64,000 nt of DNA from an uncultured bacterium (GTDB lineage Bacteria; DUMJ01): positions 585-64,584 of the forward strand of contig CALGNK010000002.1 of NCBI GenBank assembly GCA_937958695.1, given 5' to 3'. The position numbers and the translations under genes were made by a program. The first letter of the stretch is position 1. Every line of letters begins with the position of its first letter. Of the stretch, positions 11,458-64,000 are shown piece after piece. The notes under the pieces are model-generated. The model ran no database searches. It was given only the letters and a program-made list of their open reading frames with translations, and was not told the origin of the DNA.

Positions 11458-11714
11458 AGTGTCTATAGATACTCCTCTATTTAAAATTATTAACTTTCAT
11501 CTTTCCCCCTTATTTTAACACTAACGCTAGGAAACAATCTAATTTCTGGTAGATTATTTTGAGGAAGATCTGATCGATTGCAGCCTTAAGTTTTGTTTTT
11601 TGAATTATTGTGATAATATTATACTTATTAGTAGATAGGAATGCCTTTATGAACCCTCTTAAGTATAAAGAAGACTTGCATATATACAATGATATAAAAA
11701 AAGAGGTGCGCAGT

Positions 11715-12620
11715 ATGCGAATAATTACTGCGCTTTTCTTTGCAGTGCCTTATATTTTGCTAGCAAAGGATAATAGATATTTCTATTTAACCCTTCTTTT
11801 TGGATTTATCTTTTTATTGGTTCAGGTATTAAAGGTTAAATCTCCGTGGATACCAGTAGTATTAACCTTATTGCTTAATGTTTCTATAGTAGCTACTACA
11901 GGTATTCAGAGAAGCCCATTTATGTTTTTATTTCTTCTTCCTGTTATAACCCATGGAATAGAAAGAGAGCTTAATTGGGCTTTAAGAGTAGCTTTTATAA
12001 ATGTGGTATTTCTGGTTATCTTTGAGATATACTCTGCTATTACTGGAGATTTCTTTGGTGTAGGATACATAAGTAGTGTCATAGTTCTTATGTATTATTT
12101 ATCAAAAATTATAGTGGAGGCTCAAGGATCTATACTTTCCTACGCTACAGATATGAAAGAGAAAGCTTATCTAGATCCTCTTACAGGTCTTTATAATAGG
12201 AGAGCTCTTGAGGAATATATCAATAGTATGATTCTTAATAAAGTTCCTTTTACTTTAGTAATGTGTGATCTGGATGAATTTAAAAGATATAACGATACCT
12301 ATGGACATCAAGCAGGAGATATGATGCTTAAGAAGTTCGCAGATATTTTGAAGACTTCTATTAGGTCTTCAGATTTAAGTTTTAGATACGGAGGAGATGA
12401 ATTTGTTATACTTCTACTAGGAGAACTGGAGAATTTAACTCCTTTATATGACAGGATAAAGAATAAACTAAAGGAACAGTCAAACGATATAGGCGTATCT
12501 TTTGGGGTAGCTATCTTTCCAAAAGATGGAAAATCTCTAGATAGAATAATTTCTATTGCTGATAACTCTTTGTATGAAAAGAAGAAGAGTTTGAACAATA
12601 GAAACATCAGTTCCTTTTAA
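11715..12620 (+). CDS. Membrane-anchored diguanylate cyclase (multi-TM N-domain + GGDEF with intact RxxD I-site)
   Basis: RSSDLSFRYGGDEF read directly. The AAGAGGTG RBS favours the ATG at 11715 over the track start at 11610. Confidence 0.75.
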   Translation: MRIITALFFAVPYILLAKDNRYFYLTLLFGFIFLLVQVLKVKSPWIPVVLTLLLNVSIVATTGIQRSPFMFLFLLPVITHGIERELNWALRVAFINVVFLVIFEIYSAITGDFFGVGYISSVIVLMYYLSKIIVEAQGSILSYATDMKEKAYLDPLTGLYNRRALEEYINSMILNKVPFTLVMCDLDEFKRYNDTYGHQAGDMMLKKFADILKTSIRSSDLSFRYGGDEFVILLLGELENLTPLYDRIKNKLKEQSNDIGVSFGVAIFPKDGKSLDRIISIADNSLYEKKKSLNNRNISSF

Positions 12621-32571: not shown

Positions 32572-33702
32572 ATGGAAAGCTACAAGAGACTTTTCTTAGC
32601 TAAGAATATTCTTTTTTTATTTAATTTCTTCCTTGGTTTTGGGGGGGGAACCCTAGGTTTTCTTATCTATTTATTCTCCAGGCTTTTTATAGTAAAAACA
32701 TGGAGGTTCAAATTTGACATATTGCCAACACTTATAATCTTGTCCTTTTTTCTCTCTTCTATATTTTCTCTATACAGAAATTTCTCTCTAGGTAATTTTA
32801 CTGTACTTCTTTTCCTCTATATCACTTATCTATTCTTGAGAAAGGAAGAACTTAATAGAGATGATACTGTAAGGATGTTAGATTACTTTATTCTTGGATC
32901 CGCTATGCTTGCATTTGGAAGTATTATCGGATATCTCTACAATGGAACCTATGCAGATACTCCTTTTCTTGGGAAGAACGGGATAGGAACTATTCTTGCT
33001 ACCGCTATACCTATTATCCAGTTAAGCATTATATCTGAGTGTGAAGTCTATCATTATTTATTCTTTGTCCTTATAATATCTGGATTAATACTGAGTATGT
33101 CTCAGGGTGCTTGGGTAGGATTATGTATGGGTGAATTGTTCTTGTTAACCCTTGGCAATAAAAAGATTAGAAAGAGTATAACTATACTTGTATTATCCGC
33201 TCTTCTATCATTAACTATACTTTCTGTTCATTCTGCTATAACAGGTACTAATTTATTATTCTTCTTCTATACGCGATTAGACCCCTACAGCAGTTCCAAA
33301 ATAGAGAGAGTATATATTTGGAAGGCTAGTATAAAAATGTTCTTAGACCATCCTATTTTGGGTATAGGAATTGGAACATTTCCTCTAATATACCCAAGTT
33401 ATAAACTACCTCAGGCTTATGAAACTTCTATGTCATTTGCCCATAACCTTCCGTTAAATATTCTTGCAGAGACAGGTATTCTTGGATTCTTATCATTCTT
33501 TACTTTTATAGTAAGTTTGTATATAAGAGGCATAAGGCTCTATAGAAAGACTCAAGATGATCTTGTCTTAATACTTCTTTCATCTCTTACCGTTTATCTT
33601 GGGCATCAACTTTTTGATGGTACAATGTGGTCTCTACATATAGGGCTAATACTATGGTTTATAGGGGCGATTATATTGAATTTTTATGAGAGGGTGAGAT
33701 AG
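32572..33702 (+). CDS. O-antigen ligase / Wzy-family polymerase-like membrane protein
   Basis: About 10 TM segments and a MSQGAWVG Wzy_C-like motif. Confidence 0.6.
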   Translation: MESYKRLFLAKNILFLFNFFLGFGGGTLGFLIYLFSRLFIVKTWRFKFDILPTLIILSFFLSSIFSLYRNFSLGNFTVLLFLYITYLFLRKEELNRDDTVRMLDYFILGSAMLAFGSIIGYLYNGTYADTPFLGKNGIGTILATAIPIIQLSIISECEVYHYLFFVLIISGLILSMSQGAWVGLCMGELFLLTLGNKKIRKSITILVLSALLSLTILSVHSAITGTNLLFFFYTRLDPYSSSKIERVYIWKASIKMFLDHPILGIGIGTFPLIYPSYKLPQAYETSMSFAHNLPLNILAETGILGFLSFFTFIVSLYIRGIRLYRKTQDDLVLILLSSLTVYLGHQLFDGTMWSLHIGLILWFIGAIILNFYERVR

Positions 33703-33742
33703 TCTAAAAATTCTTTCAAGAGGAGGATGGAAAAATTGGTCT

Positions 33743-34807
33743 ATGGCTCAAAAGATACTTTATATCCTCCCATTTATGAATCTGGGGGGAACGGAGGTTC
33801 ATACTGTTGAACTGATAAAGGGTATCAGATCGGAATACGATGTATTAGTAGCAGGACCGGAAGGTGCAGGACTTTCTCTTCTAGAGGGAAATAAGATACC
33901 ACATACAAAACTGCCAGGGCTTACTCCATTCAATGTGAGGCTATATAAGAATTTATTAACGAGCATAATGAGAGACTATAAACCAGATCTAGTTCATATA
34001 CAGGGAAGATACGAGCCTGCCTTCTTTACCAAGAGGGCTTTCCCTTCTACTCCAGTTATTATTACCTGTCATGGTTATGGAAATTCTATAGCTCTATGGG
34101 ATTATAAACTTACCGCTACAACAGGGAATAGATGGGCAGATAAGATTATTGCGGTATGTAATAATGACAAAGAAGTACTCGTCAAATTAGGTCTGGACCC
34201 TCGAAAGGTTACACTTATATACAATGGGGTATCTTCCATAGAAGATAGGAAATATTTACCCCAATTTGATGGGCTTAAGATTGGAACTATCGCTAGCCTT
34301 ATAAAGAGAAAGGGGATTAACTATCTTATAGAAGCAGTAGAGTTAATCACTAAGAAATTCAGAGATGTGGGTCTCTTTATTATTGGAGAAGGAGAAGAGA
34401 GGAAAAGGTTAGAATCTTTAGTTGAGAAGCTTAAGATAAAAAGGCATATATTTTTCCTTGGAGGTCTTCCATTTGCTAGAAGCTACATAAATAACTTCGA
34501 TATATTTGTTTTACCATCACTTTTTGAATCATTACCAGTATCAATTATAGAGGCTTATGCAGAGAAGAAGCCTGTTATTGCCTCAAAAGTAGGTGGTATT
34601 CCAGAATTGGTGATAGACGAAGAAACAGGAATCCTTGTCCCTCCTAAAGACAGTAAGGCGTTGGCTTCTGCTATTGAGAGACTTATAGAAGATGAACAGC
34701 TTAGGGAGAGGTTAGGAGAAAATGGTTATAATAGATTTATAAGAGAATTTACCTTTAAGGTTATGGTAGAAAAGACCAGAATGGTATATAAAGATATACT
34801 AAAATGA
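33743..34807 (+). CDS. Glycosyltransferase family 4 (GT-B, group 1)
   Basis: E-x7-E C-terminal motif region (ESLPVSIIEA). Paralog of the 55567..56643 gene. Confidence 0.75.
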   Translation: MAQKILYILPFMNLGGTEVHTVELIKGIRSEYDVLVAGPEGAGLSLLEGNKIPHTKLPGLTPFNVRLYKNLLTSIMRDYKPDLVHIQGRYEPAFFTKRAFPSTPVIITCHGYGNSIALWDYKLTATTGNRWADKIIAVCNNDKEVLVKLGLDPRKVTLIYNGVSSIEDRKYLPQFDGLKIGTIASLIKRKGINYLIEAVELITKKFRDVGLFIIGEGEERKRLESLVEKLKIKRHIFFLGGLPFARSYINNFDIFVLPSLFESLPVSIIEAYAEKKPVIASKVGGIPELVIDEETGILVPPKDSKALASAIERLIEDEQLRERLGENGYNRFIREFTFKVMVEKTRMVYKDILK

Positions 34808-43514: not shown

Positions 43515-44933
43515 TTATCTTTCGTAGGCGCCGATATCAAACCCTTTACCCCTTGGCCTTTGAATCCCGTCTAAGTCATCTTTAGGAGCGTTTATTGAAC
43601 TCCCATTATCAATAGCAGGACTTCCTATCTTTAGATGATAATCCCCTACATTCCCAAAAGCCGGATTAACGAAGAGAGGATCACCATATAAATTCCCAAC
43701 TCCTAGAGAAGCTATATTATTAGCATAGTATGTTTTATCTCCATGTACAAGAATAAATTCGCTATTAGGAGTATAGAAAAGGTTATGCTCAGCAATCAAA
43801 TTTGTTTTAGGGCTAATAAATATTGGAGAGTTTTCTCCTATCCCTCTAAATATAATATTACGTAAGGTTAGATTTATATTTATATCTGGATAATCGTACT
43901 GTGCATGCATTAAGTAATTGCGTCCTACAAAGTCATCTACAGTTACATTTATAATTTTAAAACTGGCATTATTAGTTTCTGTAGATATAACTATTGGTGA
44001 CCAAGGTGTCTCTGAAATGTCCCCATCGCCACGCCCATAGATTAATGTATTCTCCACCCTACTGTTATTACCCCAAAGCTTAATTCCATCACAGGAATTA
44101 TTGGCAACTATACAATGATGAATATATGTATTCTCCGCTTTAGAGTCGAGCCCATCACCTCTATTATGTTCTGCTATTGTATATGCTATTTCTATAGGTC
44201 CAATAGACGTTTCTATCCCAAAGCCATCAGGTCTATCGTATGGCCCTGGACCAGAAGTACCCTGATAGTAATGTCCATTATATGATAGATGGCATTTAAG
44301 TATTAATACATTCCTCCAGCCACCCTGTTCTCCCAACGGTCCTCCTATTGAACCAAACCCACAGTGAGTAATTTGAGAATTGACAATTTGAAGCCCATTT
44401 ACATCCTTTATATTTATACCAAATTCATCTATATGATGTATGTATATATCCTTAATAATTACATTACTAATTGGGCTTTCAAGCGCTTCTATCCCATCTC
44501 TAAATGGAGAACCGTTATAACTAGTTATTTCAAGATTTTCAATCTTGATATAACTTTTACCTGAAATATCTATAGCAGTTAATAGATTATCTCTACCTAC
44601 TAGTAAAGGTCTATTACCATCTTCTCCCTTTATAGTGATCCAGCTGTTAGAATTACCTGAATATTGAGGGATTATTATATCGTCATCATATTGACTTAGT
44701 ATATATTTCCCTCCTAGTATGATTAAAGTGTCACCAGGTTTAACCTGTCTTGAGCCATACCCTGGAGTGGCCCAGGGTTTGTCTAAAGTCCCAGGGTTAC
44801 TGTTATTCCCTTTTGGAGACACATAGTAAATTTTACCAGTGGCAGAGGCTGAAGGTACTTCTCTGATACACTCAGAACAACCTATTTGAATAATAACAAA
44901 TAAGATGAGTAATAGAAATTTAATCTTCCTCAT
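43515..44933 (-). CDS. Secreted right-handed parallel beta-helix repeat protein (pectate-lyase / polysaccharide-depolymerase fold)
   Basis: The internal ATG at 44933 sits directly after GGAGGTGGAG and starts a signal peptide (MRKIKFLLLILFV), so the track start at 45035 is probably upstream of the true start. Gly/Asn-rich repeats. Confidence 0.7.
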   Translation of the reverse strand: MRKIKFLLLILFVIIQIGCSECIREVPSASATGKIYYVSPKGNNSNPGTLDKPWATPGYGSRQVKPGDTLIILGGKYILSQYDDDIIIPQYSGNSNSWITIKGEDGNRPLLVGRDNLLTAIDISGKSYIKIENLEITSYNGSPFRDGIEALESPISNVIIKDIYIHHIDEFGINIKDVNGLQIVNSQITHCGFGSIGGPLGEQGGWRNVLILKCHLSYNGHYYQGTSGPGPYDRPDGFGIETSIGPIEIAYTIAEHNRGDGLDSKAENTYIHHCIVANNSCDGIKLWGNNSRVENTLIYGRGDGDISETPWSPIVISTETNNASFKIINVTVDDFVGRNYLMHAQYDYPDININLTLRNIIFRGIGENSPIFISPKTNLIAEHNLFYTPNSEFILVHGDKTYYANNIASLGVGNLYGDPLFVNPAFGNVGDYHLKIGSPAIDNGSSINAPKDDLDGIQRPRGKGFDIGAYER

Positions 44934-45028
44934 AACTCCACCTCCTAATTTTCTATCAATATTATAAGCTATTTTGAATAATAAAACAATTGACCGACAA
45001 TGCCACCAGTTTTCCGAACTATTTATAC

Positions 45029-45058
45029 TTGACAAAATGAGCTTACTTTTGATATATT
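45029..45058 (+). promoter_or_regulatory. Sigma-70-like promoter for the ABC operon: TTGACA (45029-45034), 17-nt spacer, ATATAT/TATATT
   Basis: Read directly in the divergent intergenic region. Confidence 0.4.
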
Positions 45059-55111: not shown

Positions 55112-55564
55112 ATGTCATACCCCTATAAGATCTTTATTTTAGTTGCCTTAGTAGTATTTCTAATCCCTGCTTCGGCCTTAGCCAGAGAAAGGTTTAGAGT
55201 AAATGTTAGGGCAGACTTAGAAGATGAGAATGTAGGAGCAGAGTTTGAGTATAATCTTAGTTACAGACTTTGTGTTTATGGAGGAATTACTCTTAGTATA
55301 GGAACTATTGATAGGGGAAGGATATCAGCTGGTTTTAAGTATTATCTTTGGGAACCGGATGAGAAACTGTACTTTAAGATACGTGGTATAACCAATTTTG
55401 AAGACTCAACTATTACAAGGTTTAAAGTAGATATAGGTATAGGTTATACTACATATCTTAATCATACAAGAAGTTCTATAGAATTGGGAGTTTTAATAGG
55501 TACTTATAACAATGCACTAAATATTGAGCCATCGTTTGGGGTATTGGTATCAGTAAGTAGATAA
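55112..55564 (+). CDS. Small secreted beta-rich protein (possible small outer-membrane beta-barrel), hypothetical
   Basis: Signal peptide ending ASALA; alternating hydrophobic pattern; 150 aa. Confidence 0.5.
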   Translation: MSYPYKIFILVALVVFLIPASALARERFRVNVRADLEDENVGAEFEYNLSYRLCVYGGITLSIGTIDRGRISAGFKYYLWEPDEKLYFKIRGITNFEDSTITRFKVDIGIGYTTYLNHTRSSIELGVLIGTYNNALNIEPSFGVLVSVSR

Positions 55565-55566
55565 GG

Positions 55567-56643
55567 CTAACCAGAGCGATTTAATAGGTTTTGATAGACC
55601 TCTTTAGTTTTTATAATCATACCTTCTAAGGTGAATCTTTCTCTATATCTTCTATATCCTTCTTCTTTTAAGTATTCTATTAACTTCTTATCACTTAATA
55701 GTTTCTCTATAGCCTGAGCAAGCGCTAAGGAATCTTGAGGAGGTACTAGAAGTCCGGCTTTACCATTTTCTATAATTTCTGGAATGCCTCCTACATTTGT
55801 AGCTATAACCGGAACTTTCTGAGATATCGCCTCTAAAATTGATATTGGTAATGCTTCAATAAGCGAAGGTAAAACAAATATATGAAAGTTACTAAAATAG
55901 AGTTTTGCATTAGGAAGAGCTCCTAAGAAAAAGACTCTATCCTCTATATTTAGTCTCTTAGTTAATTCTTCTAAAATATTTCTCTCTTCACCATCTCCTA
56001 TTATTACAAGATTTACTTCCCTATGTTTATTATACAAATAGCTGAAAGCTTCTATAAGATATCTGACCCCCTTAGATTTAGTAAGTCTTACTGCTGTTCC
56101 TATAATAACTCCTTCTATATTTATTGGAAGTTCTCTTCTCTCTTTACTCTCAGATACCCCATTGTAGATAAGTGTGATCTTATCTACAGGTAATCCAGCT
56201 TTGATAAGCTTTTCTCTATCATAGTTTGAGACTGCTATAACACTATCTCCCCATTTCCTATTTATAAGAGTAGCTATCTTATAGTCGATGAATGGAAGAA
56301 AAGTGTTATATCCATGACAGGTAAATATTACTGGTATACTAGAAGCTACGCTTTTAGATATATAGACTAGTTCATGCGCTCCATGAACATGGATTATACT
56401 AGGACTGAATTCTTCTATTATGTATTTCAATTCCCTTTTGTAATTTTTAGTATTTGTGAATGTAAGCGGTATAATTTCTCTATATGTAATATTACCTTCT
56501 TTTAGAAGGGTAATGCCTTTCCCGTACGGTGCAACAACCAATATTTTATACTCATCCTTAAAAGATTTGACTAGTTCTATCACATGGACTTCTGTCCCTG
56601 CAATCTCAAAGTAAGGCAAAAGATATAAAATCTTATGTTTCAT
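55567..56643 (-). CDS. Glycosyltransferase family 4, last gene of the EPS operon
   Basis: Its N-terminus is very similar to the 33743..34807 GT4 (KILYxLP...GTEVHxxELxK). It starts 8 nt downstream of the BcsB-like stop. Confidence 0.75.
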   Translation of the reverse strand: MKHKILYLLPYFEIAGTEVHVIELVKSFKDEYKILVVAPYGKGITLLKEGNITYREIIPLTFTNTKNYKRELKYIIEEFSPSIIHVHGAHELVYISKSVASSIPVIFTCHGYNTFLPFIDYKIATLINRKWGDSVIAVSNYDREKLIKAGLPVDKITLIYNGVSESKERRELPINIEGVIIGTAVRLTKSKGVRYLIEAFSYLYNKHREVNLVIIGDGEERNILEELTKRLNIEDRVFFLGALPNAKLYFSNFHIFVLPSLIEALPISILEAISQKVPVIATNVGGIPEIIENGKAGLLVPPQDSLALAQAIEKLLSDKKLIEYLKEEGYRRYRERFTLEGMIIKTKEVYQNLLNRSG

Positions 56644-56651
56644 AGATTAAT

Positions 56652-58670
56652 TTAAGAGCCTCTCTGTCTCTTCCTAATAAATATAATAGTAACAAGGGTA
56701 ATTAAGACCGCTATCAATAACACTATGAGATAACTTAATAGTGGTTGCCTAGCAAATATGGTGAATAATGCCCTCTTTTCTCTTATAAGGATACTTGAGA
56801 CAATCTCTCCTAAGCCAGTTATAACACTGACTTGTCCATAGATTTTATTTCGGGTATCCGAATTCCCTACAATTCTCTTTAATCTAGATAATGTATCTTG
56901 GTCTTTATAGATGACTGAATACATAGCCTTGTCTTTATTCCAAGGAGAAGAATTTGCTTGTAAGAGTGCCTTAATGATAAATCCATCGAGAGAAAATCCT
57001 AAGTCTTTTTTTATAGAGAATCCAATCTCTTGGGGGACTACCCATAGTATATCAGAGATTCTCTTTAGCCTTTTGTCCTCCATATCTCCTATAAATATCA
57101 CATTCTTATCTTTTAGATAATCTTCATCTATCTTTTCCCCTAAGAATGTCTTCCATCTAAATATCTTTCCCAGCGTCTGTCCTAAGGTGGCAGATAAGGT
57201 AACAGACAGTGAAAGCTCTTCTTCAGATGGGCTTTCGGGGAGCCATAGAACGATCTCTCTATCAGTCTTGAAACTCCAGATGTCTCTAAGGTCGGGATAA
57301 AATCCTCGCCATTCTTTTACTAGATATATGAAAGAATCTCCTTCAATCTTAGTCCAAGCTATTTCATCATACCTCTTATTACAGTCCACCTCTATCAGAT
57401 TATGATATGTTTTTATCTCTACAAACCATTCTCTCTTATCAAGCTCTTCTTTTGGAAATGGAATTCTTAAAACTCCTCTTTCAGCATTCCCTGCATCCAA
57501 TCTTTCACTCTTTACCGGAATCCCATTTATGTAAACAGTTATCGAAGATTTTTTGGTTTCTAAAACCTTGGAGTGGCTAAATTGAAGCTCTATAAATGAA
57601 CCGTTTCCTATCCCTTCAAAACCTGCCGGTAACCTTAGGAGAAAAGACGCGTTCTGATGAAATACACCTGAAAGAACTATATTTTTGTAGCCAAGGTCTT
57701 TTAGCCTTATCAAGCCTTCTTTTCCTATCTCTTCTCCCTCTTTAGCTGGGATTGAAGTTACAATTATTGGATTCTTCTCCGTAATAGATGTCTGCAATGG
57801 ATCATTAATATAAGAAACAGCCTTTGATAAACCTTCTCTTTTGCCTGATATATATAATTGTACTCTATCTTTTGAGGAAAGAAGATATATTAGTCCATCA
57901 CTTTCTTTTAGATTTTTAAATGCACTGTCTGAAGATAGTACATTCCATCTTGATAACTCTCCTACAAGAATCTGTGACTCTTTACTATATCTATAGGGAT
58001 CTTCTGTAGAAACCTTTAGATAGAGATTCTTGTATCTTTCTCTAATACCTAAACCATTTGCTACCTCTAACATAGCTTCTAACTCTTCTGGGGAAAAGTT
58101 TTTAGGGAGATAAAATGTAAAATTGATCGGCTCTTTATCAAGATAATCCAAAAATGGATAGGGATAATCAGAAATTTTATAAATTTTATTTTCTAGAATC
58201 TCTAGGTGTAGAAACGAATCTTTATGTATTAGCACCCAGTTGGCATCGTTATCTATATCCTTACATAGACCTTCTACACTCCTATGTCTAGTAATTATAG
58301 AGATCTCATTGAACCCTTTCTTAATTAATCCTTTAGGGATACTTATTCTCCAGTATACAGGTCTCTTTTCTTTCTGACTTATGCTTTTACTGCTTAAAGG
58401 CCTCCCATTGATTGATGCAGTTATAAAAGATTCTCTATCTATAATGGTGGGAGAAAACGAGTATCTGATTTCTAAGAAATTATTATCCCCAGGTTGAATT
58501 CCCGACTTTATCTCAAACCAAAAGACCGCTTTGCCAATGGGTAGATTTAAAAGCCTATCGTCTTTAAATAACTGTATATTGTAACCTCTAGTTTCTAAAG
58601 AACAGTAAGAAACATTGGGAATTAGGTGAAATATAAAGATAAACATTAACAAAAGAATTCTTCTTTTCAT
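56652..58670 (-). CDS. BcsB-like (YdaN-like) exopolysaccharide synthase periplasmic subunit
   Basis: 672 aa with a signal peptide, a large extracytoplasmic domain and a single C-terminal TM anchor. 1-nt overlap with the GT2. The assignment is by architecture and synteny. Confidence 0.55.
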   Translation of the reverse strand: MKRRILLLMFIFIFHLIPNVSYCSLETRGYNIQLFKDDRLLNLPIGKAVFWFEIKSGIQPGDNNFLEIRYSFSPTIIDRESFITASINGRPLSSKSISQKEKRPVYWRISIPKGLIKKGFNEISIITRHRSVEGLCKDIDNDANWVLIHKDSFLHLEILENKIYKISDYPYPFLDYLDKEPINFTFYLPKNFSPEELEAMLEVANGLGIRERYKNLYLKVSTEDPYRYSKESQILVGELSRWNVLSSDSAFKNLKESDGLIYLLSSKDRVQLYISGKREGLSKAVSYINDPLQTSITEKNPIIVTSIPAKEGEEIGKEGLIRLKDLGYKNIVLSGVFHQNASFLLRLPAGFEGIGNGSFIELQFSHSKVLETKKSSITVYINGIPVKSERLDAGNAERGVLRIPFPKEELDKREWFVEIKTYHNLIEVDCNKRYDEIAWTKIEGDSFIYLVKEWRGFYPDLRDIWSFKTDREIVLWLPESPSEEELSLSVTLSATLGQTLGKIFRWKTFLGEKIDEDYLKDKNVIFIGDMEDKRLKRISDILWVVPQEIGFSIKKDLGFSLDGFIIKALLQANSSPWNKDKAMYSVIYKDQDTLSRLKRIVGNSDTRNKIYGQVSVITGLGEIVSSILIREKRALFTIFARQPLLSYLIVLLIAVLITLVTIIFIRKRQRGS

Positions 58671-59932
58671 TACGAAACACTCCTTTCCGTTTTATACCAT
58701 CTTAATGCTTTACCTGTAATCTTTTCTCTAATAGAGAAATATATCGCTCTTATAACAACTATAAGCCAAAGCTGGCAGTATGTAAAATACATTAAACATA
58801 TCAATAAAAGGTTTTCTAAATTACCTTCGCCTCTTTCAAAACTTAGAGATATAAATGTCTCTGTGATATAAAGGGCATAAGCTAAGAACCATATGAGAAA
58901 TAGTGGGCCTCCAATGTTTAGTTTTATTATGCGTAGTAAGCCCAGAATAAATATTACATCTGACACAACTATACCAGAAAAAGCCAGTAGATATATATAG
59001 GCGAAATAGAGTATATCAAACATAATCTTTTTATCTCTTAACGAGAAGAAATTTTTAAGATATGTAAATATTACTGCAAGATTCCCCCTTGCCCATCTTG
59101 TCCTTTGCTTGAACCAAACCTTAAGTTTTTCTGGTTCTTGTTCCCATGTTACTGCGTATGGTATCCAGAGTATCCTATAGCCAGATTGGTATATCCTTAT
59201 TGTAAGTTCTGTATCCTCTGTAAGGCTCTTAGTTTTCCAGCCGCCAATCTTGTTCAGAAGCTCCTTTCTTATGATAAAATTAGTACCTGGTATTGTAGCA
59301 AGACCCCACAAGTAATTTCTAGCTGCCTGGACAAGCCACTGAAAACTCAGGGTCTCTATATTTATAAAACGAGTAAGTATACTTCTATCCCTATTCCTAG
59401 TCCTAAACTTTCCTACTACTGCCCCAAGGTTGGGATTATTGATTATAAATCTTACAAGATTTAATATTGCTCTCCTTTCAGGGGTATTATCAGCATCATA
59501 GACTACTATGTAATCCCCACTAGCTAACTTTAATCCCTGATTCAGTGCGTTAGCCTTGCCTTTAGCACCTAAGGGTGGTTGTATCTCTAATATCATAAGG
59601 TTTTTGTACTTTTTAGCCCTCTCTCTTAAAATTTCTCCTGTTCTATCTGTAGAACTATCATTGATAACGATGACCTCTAATTTATCTTTAGGGTAAATAG
59701 ATCTCATTATTGCATCTACAGTATTACCAATCACCTTTTCCTCATTGTGAGCTGGGATTAATACTGTTATCTTTGGATATTCTGAGAGTTCCTCTGAGGT
59801 TATCTCAAATTTTTGTGTCTCTAAAAAGTATCTATACCCAAAGAACGTTAAAAAGATATGATACAGTAGAATAAACCAGACGATTGCCATAGATATAACA
59901 AAGGCATAGTCCCAGAATGTTAATATATTCAT
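58670..59932 (-). CDS. Processive family-2 glycosyltransferase (YdaM/PgaC/BcsA-catalytic-core-like) with no PilZ domain
   Basis: QRTRW (QxxRW) at nt 59093-59107, DAD and DSSTD motifs, 2 N-terminal and about 3 C-terminal TM; 420 aa. Confidence 0.8.
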   Translation of the reverse strand: MNILTFWDYAFVISMAIVWFILLYHIFLTFFGYRYFLETQKFEITSEELSEYPKITVLIPAHNEEKVIGNTVDAIMRSIYPKDKLEVIVINDSSTDRTGEILRERAKKYKNLMILEIQPPLGAKGKANALNQGLKLASGDYIVVYDADNTPERRAILNLVRFIINNPNLGAVVGKFRTRNRDRSILTRFINIETLSFQWLVQAARNYLWGLATIPGTNFIIRKELLNKIGGWKTKSLTEDTELTIRIYQSGYRILWIPYAVTWEQEPEKLKVWFKQRTRWARGNLAVIFTYLKNFFSLRDKKIMFDILYFAYIYLLAFSGIVVSDVIFILGLLRIIKLNIGGPLFLIWFLAYALYITETFISLSFERGEGNLENLLLICLMYFTYCQLWLIVVIRAIYFSIREKITGKALRWYKTERSVS

Positions 59933-61407
59933 ACTTTATCACCCATCTCGTATAGTTTTCTCTTATTTCTTATCAGATAGAAAATAATTATGGCAAAGAT
60001 ACTGATTGTAATTATTAATATGGTTCTCAGATAATTAATGAACGTCTTAAAGACTTTTTGCAAAAATGTCTCCTCCAGAGGAGGAATACTACTATTGATT
60101 ACCTTTTCCCCATCGATATTTACAATTTTCATATATTTGCTTTCTACTTTGAAAGGTTCTTTTCTTAGTTCTAAGAAGTTGTACCCTAACGCACGCATCT
60201 CACCTATCAATTCTCTTAGTTTATCTGTTGTAGCGTAAGATGGAACCGTAATACCTATAATAGCATCTCTTAAAATTCTAAATTCCCTTGCCCTTTTCAA
60301 TAGATAGTTATATTGTGTAGGATCATTAGGATTATATCCATTCATATTTATCGGATATGCTATAGCTTTTGGGGAGCTGATGCTTAAAAGCCCCTCGTAT
60401 AGGAGAAGATTGAAAATTTTACTTGCCTTTTCGTAAGTTTCAAGTGAAGTATCGGGCAACTTAAACGCTATGGGAAATATCTCTAATCTCCCTAATATTA
60501 GTAAGTCCTCTTCTATTATACTATTAATGTCTCTCTTATTAGGATAATTCCCCAATATAATAGCTCCGTTATGTTCTTCTACAAGTTTTAATACCTCTAT
60601 AAGGTCCATATTTTCTCCCAAGTAGTAAGTATTCCCAGAATGATTTACTTTAGGGTATATTATAAGATTAATAGAGACATCTTCACAGCAGTAAGATATT
60701 AATAATTCTCTAAGTTTTTCAGCAGAGGTTAAAGGGGTTACCTCATCTAGCAAGAGTAAAATTTTTCTATCATTTTTGTGATTCTCATTAAGTATATCAT
60801 GGAGAAGATCGAAGAATACCAAAAATGAGTTATCCCTAAAGTCTAATCTTCCAAAATACCAAAGATTCTCCTTTTCCCAGACAAAGGGGGTCTTTTCAGT
60901 ATAATTATCTAAAAGGGCAAGATCTTTCCTATCTCTAGGATAGGCAATATAGACTGGAGATTCTAGTTCAAAGCTTATCGATTCTCCTTTATAGAAGATA
61001 GACATATATCCAGTTTTATAACCATAATATTCAAGATCTTTCCAGTTAGCATAGTAAGCATACTGTTCTATATTTCCTTCTATCCATATAAGCCTTTTAG
61101 CTTTAGAGATATTTCTTAACAAATCTACAGTAAATCTTCTATCTTGTAGCCCAAGATAGAAGACATAGTCGTAAGAAGAAACATTACTAGGGAGATCTTC
61201 TATATAGCTACTATCTATAGATACATTAAAGTGTCTTAGGTACCTTTTTAGCAATTCTAACATAGGATAATTTTCACCTAATCTTGTCTTACCCTCATAC
61301 AATATAAGAATACGTTTACTTTCTTTAGAGTAAAGGATTTTGGGAAATATAAAGTTTAATAAAGTTAAGATAATAAGACTTATTAGTAAGATCTTACCCA
61401 ACATCAT
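59929..61407 (-). CDS. YdaL-like bitopic protein of unknown function (possibly a DUF2334 deacetylase-like fold)
   Basis: N-terminal and C-terminal TM helices with a 430-aa extracytoplasmic domain; 492 aa. The position matches ydaL. Confidence 0.5.
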   Translation of the reverse strand: MMLGKILLISLIILTLLNFIFPKILYSKESKRILILYEGKTRLGENYPMLELLKRYLRHFNVSIDSSYIEDLPSNVSSYDYVFYLGLQDRRFTVDLLRNISKAKRLIWIEGNIEQYAYYANWKDLEYYGYKTGYMSIFYKGESISFELESPVYIAYPRDRKDLALLDNYTEKTPFVWEKENLWYFGRLDFRDNSFLVFFDLLHDILNENHKNDRKILLLLDEVTPLTSAEKLRELLISYCCEDVSINLIIYPKVNHSGNTYYLGENMDLIEVLKLVEEHNGAIILGNYPNKRDINSIIEEDLLILGRLEIFPIAFKLPDTSLETYEKASKIFNLLLYEGLLSISSPKAIAYPINMNGYNPNDPTQYNYLLKRAREFRILRDAIIGITVPSYATTDKLRELIGEMRALGYNFLELRKEPFKVESKYMKIVNIDGEKVINSSIPPLEETFLQKVFKTFINYLRTILIITISIFAIIIFYLIRNKRKLYEMGDKV

Positions 61408-62248
61408 ATCTACTAGTATCTTTTGCCCTCTCCCAAAGGACTAATGCATCTTCTCCCTGTTGATATTCTGCCTCTCCTACTTTTAGTCTTATAGAGATCG
61501 ACCTCTTACGACCCTTAACCTCTACAACAATTCTATCTAAGAGATTATGGAGTTTTTCTTTTACGATCTTAGCTGAATCTAGATTTATACCAGGTAATAT
61601 TATGCCTATAGTTGCCTCATCTATTAGCCCCTTTATATCAACGACCCTTGTATTAGTCATTATCGTTTGTGCTATGGTTTTTACTATCTCTCTATAGCCA
61701 TCCTCTCCATAGACACCCCTTAACTCACTTGCGTCAGAAACATTTACATATAGAACAGATAATTTCTCTTTAAACCTGTTAGCCCTACCTACTTCTTCTT
61801 CCAATCTCTGAAAAAAGCCCTGAGTATTTAAGAAACCTGTCAACTCGTCTAGAAGTATTAATCTTTCCGCTATTCTATACTTTTCTATGTTACTTAGGAG
61901 ATTACTTACCTCTCTTTCTAATCTTCCAGAAAGATAAGCTCCAAAGGGCATAGCAAAAAGCCAAAGTACATATTCAATTCTAAATTCTGTTATAGTACCC
62001 AATACTAAGACAGAGTATAGTAGATAGGATCCATATACAAATATAATGATAAGAGAAGTAATTAAGCCGGGGATTAGACCTAAGTTATAACCTATTACCA
62101 TATTTATTACTAATGCCCCAGCTAGTATGTAGTTTATGAAGTTTACATTTTGACTTGTACCAAAGACTAGAATAAATATACAGAGCCAGAAAATCATTAA
62201 TAGATCAAAGATCACAACATCTAGTCTTAGATTTATACTTGTCTTCAT
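61394..62248 (-). CDS. YdaK-like membrane protein with a degenerate GGDEF domain retaining an RxxD I-site (putative c-di-GMP receptor)
   Basis: 4 TM, then DELTGFLN, the start of a GGDEF domain. The GG(D/E)EF position reads LIDEAT, while RVVD is preserved five residues upstream. Confidence 0.65.
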   Translation of the reverse strand: MKTSINLRLDVVIFDLLMIFWLCIFILVFGTSQNVNFINYILAGALVINMVIGYNLGLIPGLITSLIIIFVYGSYLLYSVLVLGTITEFRIEYVLWLFAMPFGAYLSGRLEREVSNLLSNIEKYRIAERLILLDELTGFLNTQGFFQRLEEEVGRANRFKEKLSVLYVNVSDASELRGVYGEDGYREIVKTIAQTIMTNTRVVDIKGLIDEATIGIILPGINLDSAKIVKEKLHNLLDRIVVEVKGRKRSISIRLKVGEAEYQQGEDALVLWERAKDTSRYDVG

Positions 62249-62282
62249 ACATATCCTCCCTCGAATAACGATTATTTTTTAA

Positions 62283-63380
62283 TTATATACCATAATTTCC
62301 CATTTTAGCTAGTAGTATTAAGGTCTCAAATTGGTCAAATACATAGAGGTCTTTAGATTTGTAGTCTCCAAGCTTAGTAATATTTATTTTACTCAGAAAG
62401 ATATCTGATTCTCCTCTTTTATTCAAATTTAAAAGGAGTAGTGATAGAGTTGCATATACTCCATAAGACTCATCTGTTGTAGCAGATTTGCCATTCCAGT
62501 AATAAGAAGTATAGATTTTACCATCTTCTCTCATCTTTGTATTTATAAAGTTAATAAACCGCTTGATAAGATTATAATCGCCGATATTTATGCCTATATA
62601 AGCCTGCTCAATCATATTTACCTTTGAAGGTGTATGATATGTGGATGATGGAATATCATAGTAATCTGGGAAGAAGATCTCGGAAAATTTTAGAGATTCT
62701 TCTAAGATCTTCTTGGAACTCTCATAGAAAACTTTGAATTTAGGTATATACTGAGATAATTTTGAAATCATCTCCAGATTTAGATAGAACAGTGGAACTC
62801 TCTTATTAGCCTTTTCTGTCCTCCCATCAAAGTAGTCAATAAGATATTTGTCATAGCTATTGAATTTTATTATATTTTCCCCGATATAGATCCCATCTCT
62901 TAAAAATCTTTCCTCTTTAAAAGTCTCATAGGCTTTTATCAAGGAGTATGAGATCCTTAAAGAGTCTAATAATGATGTAGCATCGTCTGGCAAGAGTGTC
63001 CTTCTATTTATCCTCCAGAATAAATAACCCCTAGGGGATAGAAAGTATCTCTTTGTTACCTTCCAAGTAGTATCGAAAAGAATAAGGTTATTGGTATTTA
63101 CTGCATATTCCATCAATTGTCCCATAGATTCTAGGAGAGAATACTCTATAGGCATATCATTTTGAATTTTAGAAGCGATTAATCCTCTTCTATCCATAAA
63201 TCTTTCTTTGATATGATTTAATATACCTCTTTCTAAATCTCTAGAGTTGGATATAGTCTCTTCTATAGCCTTTTGTATCCTGTAACCTAAAAGATAATCT
63301 CTAACAAGAGAGAAAGAAAAAATAGATGCCAATATTAACAATATCGTAATAATCGTGTAACTCAACTTCTTAATAGTCAC
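62283..63380 (-). CDS. YdaJ-like secreted or anchored glycoside hydrolase (GH8-like by synteny and size)
   Basis: 365 aa with an N-terminal signal anchor. LLESMGQ loosely resembles the GH8 catalytic Glu region. The assignment is weak without an HMM. Confidence 0.4.
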   Translation of the reverse strand: MTIKKLSYTIITILLILASIFSFSLVRDYLLGYRIQKAIEETISNSRDLERGILNHIKERFMDRRGLIASKIQNDMPIEYSLLESMGQLMEYAVNTNNLILFDTTWKVTKRYFLSPRGYLFWRINRRTLLPDDATSLLDSLRISYSLIKAYETFKEERFLRDGIYIGENIIKFNSYDKYLIDYFDGRTEKANKRVPLFYLNLEMISKLSQYIPKFKVFYESSKKILEESLKFSEIFFPDYYDIPSSTYHTPSKVNMIEQAYIGINIGDYNLIKRFINFINTKMREDGKIYTSYYWNGKSATTDESYGVYATLSLLLLNLNKRGESDIFLSKINITKLGDYKSKDLYVFDQFETLILLAKMGNYGI

Positions 63381-63385
63381 TTATA

Positions 63386-64000
63386 CTATTTATTGCCAGG
63401 TTCAGCTAACCTACCCATAAAAAGTATACTTCCAGAACGATTATCCCTTATAAAAAAGATAAATGGTCTATCAGCGAGAAATACAATAGGCATAACAGCC
63501 ATCTTAGTTCCCATTATGACCGCAGTAGCAGCTGCTGCCTCTGTTCCTTCCTCGTTTACTTCAACAAAAGATTGATGGATAACGCTATTTATATATAGAT
63601 CTGGTTTTGGTGTCATTCCGGAGAAATCAGCCTTTATCATATCGAACGCATCAACCATACCTAGTCTTTTTAGGATATCATTAAGGATGTACCTTTTTTC
63701 TATCTTGAATCTTGGGATATAGACTTCAACCTCTCTTTCTGATAGTGATGATAACCAAGTCTTTAGTTTTTTCGTTGAGAGAATCTTTTCTATCTTAGAG
63801 AGCATAATATTAATTTTAGGTAGAACAATAATCATAGATAAATCCTTTCCAGCATATAGTATCTCTAAGACTTGAACCTCATTGTCCTCTCCATAGTTAA
63901 ATCTTCCTTTTTGATACATCATTGGCATATCCAATTTGACATTCTCAGATACATAGAAAGGCATATTTTTAGTATTTTTAGGATCAAACTGTAATTCCCA
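63386..64000 (-). CDS. Serpin (serine protease inhibitor), C-terminal ~200 aa; the 5' end lies beyond the window
   Basis: Hinge and reactive-centre loop EEGTEAAAATAV (nt about 63521-63553) and C-terminal signature FLADRPFIFFIRD. The frame stays open to nt 64000 (…WELQFDPKNTKNMPFY…). Confidence 0.85.
   Translation of the reverse strand, partial: WELQFDPKNTKNMPFYVSENVKLDMPMMYQKGRFNYGEDNEVQVLEILYAGKDLSMIIVLPKINIMLSKIEKILSTKKLKTWLSSLSEREVEVYIPRFKIEKRYILNDILKRLGMVDAFDMIKADFSGMTPKPDLYINSVIHQSFVEVNEEGTEAAAATAVIMGTKMAVMPIVFLADRPFIFFIRDNRSGSILFMGRLAEPGNK

Follow-up and report, generated by a model that had tools for sequence, protein, structure and literature searches.

A probable Pss/YdaJKLMN-type exopolysaccharide operon with a serpin gene and a GT4 gene at its ends in an uncultured thermophile-like bacterium

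Does the exopolysaccharide (EPS) machine encoded by ydaJKLMN in Bacillus subtilis and by pss in Listeria also occur in distant thermophile-like bacteria, and can it carry additional parts? The question is raised by seven consecutive minus-strand genes at the end of a 64,000-nucleotide (nt) stretch of DNA (contig CALGNK010000002.1 of assembly GCA_937958695.1, positions 585 to 64,584), here called the window. Its host, an uncultured thermophile-like bacterium, has its closest named relatives among the Dictyoglomota; a rough IVYWREL fraction of 0.449 agrees with the thermophily proposed in an earlier note on this DNA. Our analysis suggests that the locus probably encodes a Pss/YdaJKLMN-type synthase-dependent EPS machine, organized as one unit, with a lineage-specific serpin and a lineage-specific family 4 glycosyltransferase (GT4). 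The earlier note had described a cyclic di-GMP (c-di-GMP)-type EPS operon of the ydaJKLMN kind extended by these two genes, and this description is borne out by reciprocal best hits, hidden Markov model (HMM) matches, I-site residues, and the presence of the extension in three further genomes. All seven open reading frames (ORFs) that it listed, with their sizes, are present from 55567 to the end of the window, and are given below in the order of transcription.

63386 to beyond 64000, minus strand: serpin, of which 204 C-terminal codons lie in the window; Pfam Serpin 218.8 bits; gene 1 of the predicted unit
62283-63380, minus strand: glycosidase of 365 amino acids (aa), predicted YdaJ/PssZ orthologue; GH126-type, membrane-anchored
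61394-62248, minus strand: degenerate GGDEF protein, 284 aa, predicted YdaK/PssE orthologue; Pfam GGDEF 55.1 bits
59929-61407, minus strand: YdaL/PssB-like bitopic protein, 492 aa; extracytoplasmic N-terminal alpha/beta domain and CE4-fold domain
58670-59932, minus strand: family 2 glycosyltransferase (GT2), processive synthase, 420 aa, predicted YdaM/PssC orthologue; Pfam Glyco_tranf_2_3 111.9 bits
56652-58670, minus strand: BcsB-like partner, 672 aa, predicted YdaN/PssD orthologue; Pfam BcsB 123.2 bits
55567-56643, minus strand: GT4 (retaining-type), 358 aa, last gene; Pfam Glycos_transf_1 145.2 bits

To place the five central genes, an alignment of the GT2 was used to scan one genome per species, which returned at least 600 matching stretches. 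The best 80 loci were kept, and all counts over 80 loci below refer to this set; their ORFs were called and sorted by iterated HMMs. Similar modules were found in most of these 80 genomes, predominantly Bacillota. The commonest gene order is glycosidase-GGDEF-YdaL-GT2-BcsB (24 loci), with the same order minus the glycosidase in another 25, and a variant in which the GGDEF gene comes last in 11, chiefly from Paenibacillus. The recurrence of this gene order in dozens of genomes indicates that the arrangement is not due to chance. Some loci depart from it. Three from Oceanobacillus and Halobacillus (L056, L077, and L082) carry YdaL-GT2-GH126 with no BcsB-like or operon-type GGDEF gene nearby, and may represent a reduced module that works without the BcsB partner and the c-di-GMP receptor. 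Several Paenibacillus loci feature an additional GT2 gene of 326-338 aa upstream of the module.

Direct comparisons were made with two Bacillus loci, L079 (Bacillus sp. N13C7) and L073, and with the Protein Data Bank (PDB) entry of PssZ. The L079 operon is placed between topB and a set of genes for a 616-aa protein, a Nudix hydrolase, pyruvate oxidase, and mntH; we treat it as the positional orthologue of ydaJKLMN because the published B. subtilis neighborhood (topB; Nudix, pyruvate oxidase, mntH) is the same. Its five genes encode proteins of 364, 283, 576, 420, and 707 aa, compared with 365, 284, 492, 420, and 672 aa in the window, in the same J-K-L-M-N order, so the correspondence of size and order noted earlier stands. 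By BLASTP against L079 and L073, the GT2 is 48% identical (E 1e-141 and 1e-142, respectively), the GGDEF protein 25-27% (E 6e-16 to 6e-23), the glycosidase 24% (E 3e-12 to 2e-19), the BcsB-like protein 23% (E 5e-12), and the YdaL-like protein 22% across its N-terminal 290 residues (E 5.5e-6); outside the GT2, identity to the B. subtilis-type proteins ranges from 19 to 27%. Similarity to L079 is significant for all five genes, so the lack of similarity to the Yda proteins that the earlier note named as its refutation is not what was found, and reverse searches from L079 return the same five window genes as reciprocal best hits. Moreover, HMMs built without the five recognized Dictyoglomota-type loci, and mostly from Bacillota sequences, align with the window proteins over their full length (E 3.2e-66 for the glycosidase, 9.5e-74 for the GGDEF protein, 2.6e-76 for the YdaL-like protein, 3.3e-191 for the GT2, and 9.8e-134 for the BcsB-like protein). 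Among the family HMMs named in advance, GGDEF, Glyco_tranf_2_3, BcsB, and Serpin gave matches, whereas Glyco_hydro_8 fell below its cut-off and DUF2334 was unmatched. Every sequence-level feature of Pss/Yda membership that we tested was found at the locus. These comparisons identify the core genes as orthologues of ydaJKLMN in B. subtilis and of pss in Listeria. The core machine is therefore conserved, as had been proposed, but is not the uncharacterized system with an unknown polymer that the earlier note envisaged, since the polymer of Listeria Pss has been solved; it is an already known machine and constitutes no new category.

The correspondence with the characterized systems extends to most components. 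Listeria Pss likewise comprises a GT2 (PssC), a BcsB-like protein (PssD), a degenerate GGDEF receptor (PssE), and a GH126 glycosidase (PssZ), and all its genes are reported to be needed for cell-bound EPS. It differs in having the receptor gene at the end, an order shared with the Paenibacillus-type loci, and pssZ at a separate genomic site; it has neither serpin nor GT4. Our direct sequence comparison with Listeria covers PssZ, and the polymer is known there and inferred here. The B. subtilis operon shares the gene order, near-equal protein sizes (by way of L079), and nearly equal I-site positions, and it too directs c-di-GMP-dependent EPS production through a receptor with four transmembrane (TM) helices; it lacks the serpin and GT4 genes.

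Whether the window machine is also gated by c-di-GMP depends on the GGDEF protein. It features three to four hydrophobic helices within residues 11-84, and its signature motif, DEATI (residues 210-214), is a degenerate form of GG(D/E)EF. The sequence R201-V-V-D204 lies five residues upstream (R201VVD204-IKGLI-DEATI), with R155-x-x-R158 farther upstream. These residues are closely matched in YdaK, which has four TM helices, the motif SDERI, R202xxD205, and R157xxR160, so that the I-site pair is R201/D204 here and R202/D205 there; substitution of either residue (R202A or D205A) abolishes EPS production in B. subtilis. In PssE, the corresponding motif is DKDDA, again with RxxD five residues upstream, and c-di-GMP is bound with a Kd of 0.79 uM. 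Across the operon-type homologues, R158, R201, and D204 are invariant (75/75), and the GG(D/E)EF position is degenerate in all. Ligand binding thus appears to be under selection, because the I-site residues stay invariant while the catalytic motif drifts freely. We predict that the protein is a membrane-bound I-site c-di-GMP receptor. The alternative, in which the degenerate GGDEF protein is purely structural and the machine lies outside c-di-GMP control in this organism, could draw on the observation that a single candidate cyclase was seen on the contig and no phosphodiesterase was identified. We consider it very unlikely, given that the I-site is fixed in all 75 homologues despite the drift of the catalytic motif, and that the corresponding YdaK residues are functionally required. 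The same control logic is seen in the Pel system, where synthesis of the polysaccharide is licensed by c-di-GMP bound at RxxD of the receptor PelD, a membrane protein with an inactive GGDEF domain; PelD is named by the Listeria authors as the nearest mechanistic parallel to PssE. The likeness is one of logic, not orthology, since the domain context and machinery differ. PelD has a GAF domain.

The candidate cyclase is encoded at 11610-12620 on the plus strand. This 336-aa membrane protein scores 134.8 bits against Pfam GGDEF and possesses an intact GGDEF motif (SFRYGGDEFVILL), preceded at a distance of five residues by an RSSD I-site. It is plausibly an active diguanylate cyclase, ~50 kb from the operon, that could supply the c-di-GMP.

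The GT2 carries the full set of processive synthase motifs (D92, D146-A-D148, E239-D240, and Q276RTRW280, all invariant) and hydrophobic helices at both ends. It has thousands of relatives, with identities of 75% in Dictyoglomus, ~60% in several Bacillota, and 52% in Clostridium botulinum. Its AlphaFold2 (AF2) model is confident (pLDDT 88.5), and its nearest structures are PcManGT, BcsA, and hyaluronan synthases. The BcsB-like gene starts 1 nt inside the GT2 stop, and its product scores 123.2 bits against PF03170 (cut-off 21), with a signal-like N-terminal segment and a TM helix at 647-665.

This pairing could in principle belong to a Bcs cellulose synthase operon, with a BcsA-like GT2, BcsB, a BcsZ-like endoglucanase, and a beta-1,4-glucan product. 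The BcsB domain (123 bits) speaks for it, as do the weak CelA match of the GT2 (115 bits), its similarity to BcsA structures (E 1.6e-21 by sequence, E 4e-16 by Foldseek), and the weak GH8 match of the glycosidase; like BcsA-BcsB-BcsZ, the locus combines a processive membrane GT2, a BcsB partner, and a clan GH-M-like glycosidase, and the Bcs system is likewise activated by c-di-GMP. Yet the GT2 comprises only 420 aa, about half the size of the cellulose synthase, and no PilZ domain was found in it by Pfam, whereas in Bcs the PilZ domain is fused to the synthase and the task falls here to a separate GGDEF I-site protein. Its score against CelA (TIGR03030) is 114.7 bits, far below the cut-off of 699, and PgaC/IcaA is a better NCBIfam match. 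Moreover, the glycosidase groups with GH126 PssZ rather than BcsZ, and the module is orthologous to Pss, whose product is a polymer of N-acetylmannosamine (ManNAc) and galactose (Gal), not cellulose. We therefore rejected membership in the Bcs family, a reading that we regard as highly improbable.

A system of the poly-N-acetylglucosamine (PNAG) type, in which an IcaA/PgaC-like synthase and a family 4 carbohydrate esterase (CE4) deacetylase make a partly deacetylated poly-beta-1,6-GlcNAc, fares no better. PgaC_IcaA (TIGR03937) is indeed the best NCBIfam match of the GT2 and the 492-aa protein has a CE4 deacetylase fold, but the GT2 score of 192.4 bits falls well short of the equivalog cut-off of 422.3. 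The locus has no PgaD/IcaD or PgaA/PgaB genes; the synthase is accompanied by BcsB-like and GGDEF proteins, and a BcsB-like partner is foreign to PNAG systems; and the CE4-fold protein lacks the His motifs of its canonical relatives. PNAG synthase membership was accordingly rejected, its chance being exceedingly small. Across the operon proteins, NCBIfam gave no equivalog-level assignment.

The glycosidase had been called GH8-like, a designation that we revise. Its match to PF01270 (GH8) covers residues 57-169 only and scores 22.1 bits, under the cut-off of 24. Its PDB matches, both near full length, are instead 6r2m_A (PssZ; E 1.5e-16) and 3ren_A (E 6.9e-15), the same structures that are matched by the Bacillus YdaJ-type protein. 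PssZ (6R2M) and C. perfringens CPF_2247 (3REN) are assigned in CAZy to GH126, a family structurally near GH8 and GH48 yet separate from both, and the window protein groups with these two. E84, D139, R142, Y309, and D349 are invariant in 49/49 family members, and in the alignment to PssZ, E84 is paired with the Glu of "LAES". Allowing for an assumed construct offset, we take this Glu to be the reported catalytic E72 of PssZ. The protein has an N-terminal hydrophobic anchor (residues 8-26). The Clostridium botulinum-type operons (L003, L016, and related Clostridium loci) lack a GH126 gene, and in L003 a GH113 gene (Pfam PF22612) follows the BcsB-like gene. GH113 is a beta-mannanase family, and the presence of this gene would fit a manno-configured polymer.

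The 492-aa protein, encoded between the receptor and synthase genes, is the most divergent in its motifs. A Pfam scan that included the DUF2334 model (PF10096) returned no match above threshold, and yet the protein shows full-length homology to its Bacillota orthologues, in which PF10096 is present (HMM E 2.6e-76). It features hydrophobic helices at its N- and C-termini and a CE4 fold. About two-thirds of the orthologues outside Dictyoglomota, including those of both Bacillus loci, share the motifs R[IL]EDVHP, HGYTHQ, GEGFEFW, and FEAPHY, of which HGYTH and APHY are the His motifs that the canonical YdaL family has in common with CE4 metal and catalytic sites. In the window protein and all Dictyoglomota-type orthologues, these are replaced by LLDEVTP, LGNYPN, a deletion at GEGFEFW, and FKLPDT, whereas the Bacillus YdaL type keeps RLEDxxP, HGYTH, GEGFEFW, and FEAPHY and is ~80 aa longer. 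The GGDEF-last Paenibacillus type is likewise devoid of RxEDVHP/HGYTHQ/GEGFEFW/FEAPHY. An active CE4 deacetylase was considered and rejected, the conserved His motifs being absent (LGNYPN, FKLPDT). Because a CE4-fold protein here lacks these motifs, it is probably a pseudo-deacetylase or a scaffold that keeps a structural role, and the pseudoenzyme could possibly mark a switch from chain modification to pure chain handling. Another CE4 pseudoenzyme, BA3943 of Bacillus anthracis (7BKF), lies outside EPS synthase operons, and the comparison is drawn at the level of pseudoenzyme class. Listeria PssB has been termed the "deacetylase" of its system, and strains without it are reported to lose their cell-bound EPS. 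Judging by how the genes are arranged in related loci, we take PssB to correspond to the YdaL-like protein. When a YdaL alignment with Firmicute members was used for a profile search, the same 12 close relatives alone were recovered, and neither B. subtilis YdaL nor Listeria PssB was reached.

Are the serpin and GT4 genes part of the same unit? By ORF coordinates, the junctions along the direction of transcription measure +5, +34, -14, -4, -1, and +8 nt. The genes had been described as overlapping or separated by 8 nt or less, which holds at five junctions but not between the glycosidase and GGDEF genes, where a 34-nt spacer holds a strong GAGGGAGGA ribosome-binding site. The serpin gene continues ~606 nt beyond the end of the window, and its promoter also lies outside. 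Contig L001, which differs from the window by one mismatch in a 5096-nt overlap and adds 717 nt past the window end, carries the complete gene (positions 112-1332, 406 aa), whose start would correspond to window coordinate ~64606. This intact copy rules out that the serpin is a truncated pseudogene. Upstream of the serpin, a promoter-like element, TTTAC[AT]-N17-TGnTATAA[CT], is shared by four contigs from four genomes and is followed by a GGAGAGTG ribosome-binding site; in L086, the element sits after a terminator-like hairpin that ends the preceding gene. Judged by its sequence, this promoter is sigma-70-like with an extended -10, which distinguishes the locus from ydaJKLMN with its SigB promoter. 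An Rfam search of the window and of the regions 5' of the serpin gene found no riboswitch or other RNA, so that control does not involve a c-di-GMP riboswitch. In a promoter and terminator scan inside the window, sites were no more numerous than in shuffled sequence, and this includes a promoter-like site just 5' of the GGDEF gene.

The complete seven-gene block was found in the window, in L086 (a metagenome-assembled genome from NCBI; GT2 92% identical), in L087 (GT2 89%), and in L089 (GT2 89%, serpin 75%). In all four, GT4 follows the BcsB-like gene by 7-24 nt, and the spacing between serpin and glycosidase is 5-12 nt across the copies. The upstream flanks all differ where known; downstream, the window resembles L086, and L087 differs. 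For every gene of the block, synonymous divergence (dS) is 0.7-1.9, near saturation, and the ratio of nonsynonymous to synonymous divergence (dN/dS) is 0.04-0.18. Given the small or overlapping junctions, the conserved promoter 5' of the serpin gene, and the persistence of the block in four genomes with differing flanks, the locus would form one transcription unit of ~9 kb that includes both the serpin and GT4.

The serpin features an N-terminal signal peptide and an inhibitory-type hinge, EEGTEAAAATAVIMGTK/M (E-E-G-T-E-A-A-A-A-T), with an exposed reactive-centre loop. Hinge counting and alignment to SERPINB1 place Lys at P1, and the orthologues keep this residue; among PDB entries, SERPINB1 itself (4ga7, E 7.6e-93) matches best, with the hinge aligned. 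By these predicted features, it is a secreted serpin of the inhibitory type. A parallel is offered by the cellulosome serpins of C. thermocellum, which are also secreted, come from a thermophile, are tied to an extracellular carbohydrate-handling assembly, and have been proposed to shield it against endogenous and foreign proteases. They differ in carrying dockerins and in belonging to a degradative complex, whereas the window serpin carries a signal peptide alone and is encoded first in a biosynthetic operon. A literature search found no link between serpins and Dictyoglomus; no search was aimed at serpins linked to EPS operons. The GT4 (Glycos_transf_1 145.2 bits, Glyco_transf_4 73.1 bits) reaches no NCBIfam equivalog cut-off, has its best PDB matches in 2jjm/3mbo and the BshA entry 5d00 (E ~1e-23 to 1e-20), and carries an ExxxxxxxE motif, read from the sequence. 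It is expected to be cytoplasmic and to have no TM helix, because its sole hydrophobic window (residues 255-273) lies inside the core of the Glycos_transf_1 domain. That it adds a side chain or primes a second sugar is a reasonable guess.

Several points weigh against the overall reading of the locus. Neither the serpin nor GT4 is present in the closely related L088, whose GT2 is 83% identical, or in L002 and L005-L007, which are of the Dictyoglomus type, and serpins of <=63% identity, with the same P1 Lys, occur in 76 metagenome loci in unrelated contexts with no EPS genes nearby. None of the 80 Bacillota-dominated loci carries a serpin (0/80) or a GT4 adjoining the module (0/80). Two genes of L087 (11263-14369), those for the BcsB-like protein and GT4, are each broken into a pair of ORFs, which could be genuine decay or an artifact of assembly and frameshift errors in this Logan contig. 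The YdaL-like model is of moderate confidence (pLDDT 69). Orthology of the core to the B. subtilis and Listeria systems rests on L079 as a stand-in and on the PDB entry of PssZ, and c-di-GMP binding, polymer identity, and co-transcription are all read from sequence. Finally, no UDP-N-acetylglucosamine (UDP-GlcNAc) 2-epimerase gene was found among 20 other ORFs of the window that were tested, so that nothing local points to ManNAc.

The first of these points, together with the functioning of the B. subtilis and Listeria systems without a serpin or GT4, could mean that one or both genes are mere neighbors, captured beside the five-gene module in one lineage and co-transcribed with it or simply adjacent, with no role in the production or protection of the polymer. 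The related serpins in unrelated contexts, often as tandem pairs, would suit such a capture. Set against this are the persistence of the seven-gene block in four genomes despite differing flanks and near-saturated synonymous sites, the constant 5-12-nt spacing between serpin and glycosidase, purifying selection on both genes (dN/dS 0.08-0.09 for the serpin and 0.15-0.18 for GT4), and the position of the sole conserved promoter-like element, 5' of the serpin gene. On balance, we consider simple neighborhood a credible but unlikely explanation, and prefer the reading of a Pss/YdaJKLMN-type machine with lineage-specific ends. The occurrence of relatives without these genes, and of serpins in unrelated contexts, nevertheless indicates that neither gene is needed for the core machine. 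The description of two extra genes on a conserved machine thus holds in that both are present and are kept in three further genomes; the extension belongs to a narrow clade and is not family-wide. The operon serpin looks like a recruited free-standing secreted serpin. Related secreted serpins form tandem pairs, with no EPS genes nearby, in the metagenome loci L092, L093, L141, L147, and L160. More tentatively, and with considerable doubt, we suggest that the secreted P1-Lys serpin is a working part of the EPS machine, which shields the BcsB-like, YdaL-like, and GH126 proteins and the matrix at high temperature, or controls a regulating protease.

How would such a machine operate? The homology, motifs, topology predictions, and linkage described above come from this analysis, and the steps proposed here are drawn from characterized relatives. 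At the inner membrane face, the GT2 would draw on a nucleotide-sugar donor to build the chain and would thread it through its own TM channel, to be taken up outside by the BcsB-like protein, anchored by one C-terminal helix. The GGDEF protein, predicted to be unable to make c-di-GMP, would bind it at the I-site (R201xxD204 together with R158) and so switch the synthase on. Outside the membrane, the YdaL-like protein may act as a non-catalytic CE4-fold scaffold or in chain handling, and the anchored GH126 enzyme may trim or release the polymer. GT4, in the cytoplasm, probably has the task of adding or priming a second sugar. The serpin, with its P1 Lys, is probably exported alongside, and would guard exposed proteins or the matrix from trypsin- or subtilisin-like proteases.

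Going by the orthology to Listeria Pss, the backbone of the polymer is most likely a beta-1,4-linked hexosamine such as ManNAc. The Listeria Pss polymer is -4)-beta-ManNAc-(1-4)-[alpha-Gal-(1-6)]-beta-ManNAc-(1-, and the product of B. subtilis ydaJKLMN binds GSL-1, a lectin for alpha-Gal/GalNAc. The Listeria structure, GSL-1 binding, and the GH113 gene of the C. botulinum-type loci all fit a manno-configured backbone. The terminal alpha-1,6-Gal of the Listeria structure is the type of sugar that GSL-1 reads. In a comparison of PMC13274460 with PMC13492145, the 2026 B. subtilis paper on ydaJKLMN-dependent GSL-1 binding never mentions Listeria, and the B. subtilis and Listeria literatures appear unconnected in that paper.

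Other loci of the window also touch on the cell surface. Convergent with GT4, with 2 nt between the stop codons, lies a 150-aa ORF on the plus strand (55112-55564) that features a signal peptide and an alternating hydrophobic pattern, has no Pfam or NCBIfam match, and may encode a small envelope beta-barrel protein. Its counterpart in L086 (149 aa) is in the same place; none was seen in L087 or L089. At 32572-34807 (plus strand), a Wzy_C gene (O-antigen ligase/polymerase-like) precedes another GT4 gene (286 bits against an HMM made from the operon GT4); the two form a separate surface-glycan locus. A 506-aa right-handed beta-helix protein (43515-45035, minus strand; Pfam Beta_helix 39.5 bits), whose neighbors are nearly all on the plus strand, may be a secreted polysaccharide lyase- or hydrolase-like protein.

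Relative to the characterized systems, what is new here is the host lineage, the extension of the operon by a serpin gene at its head and a GT4 gene at its end in four uncultured genomes, the sigma-70-type promoter in place of SigB, and the loss, in common with some Bacillota, of the His motifs of the YdaL-like protein. These data extend the Pss/Yda module beyond Bacillota into Dictyoglomota-like thermophiles with its c-di-GMP I-site intact, and supply each subunit in thermostable form for structural studies of a complex still without a solved structure. They also show that the YdaL/PssB component exists in two forms, with and without CE4-like His motifs, which bears on whether the polymers of this family are deacetylated. 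Moreover, the block ties a bacterial serpin, by conserved genetic linkage, to a machine for extracellular polysaccharide. Little is known of the physiological roles of serpins in prokaryotes, and the operon link therefore gives them a testable one. If the serpin does prove to be a working part, it would be, as far as we have found, the first protease-inhibitor subunit of a synthase-dependent EPS system.

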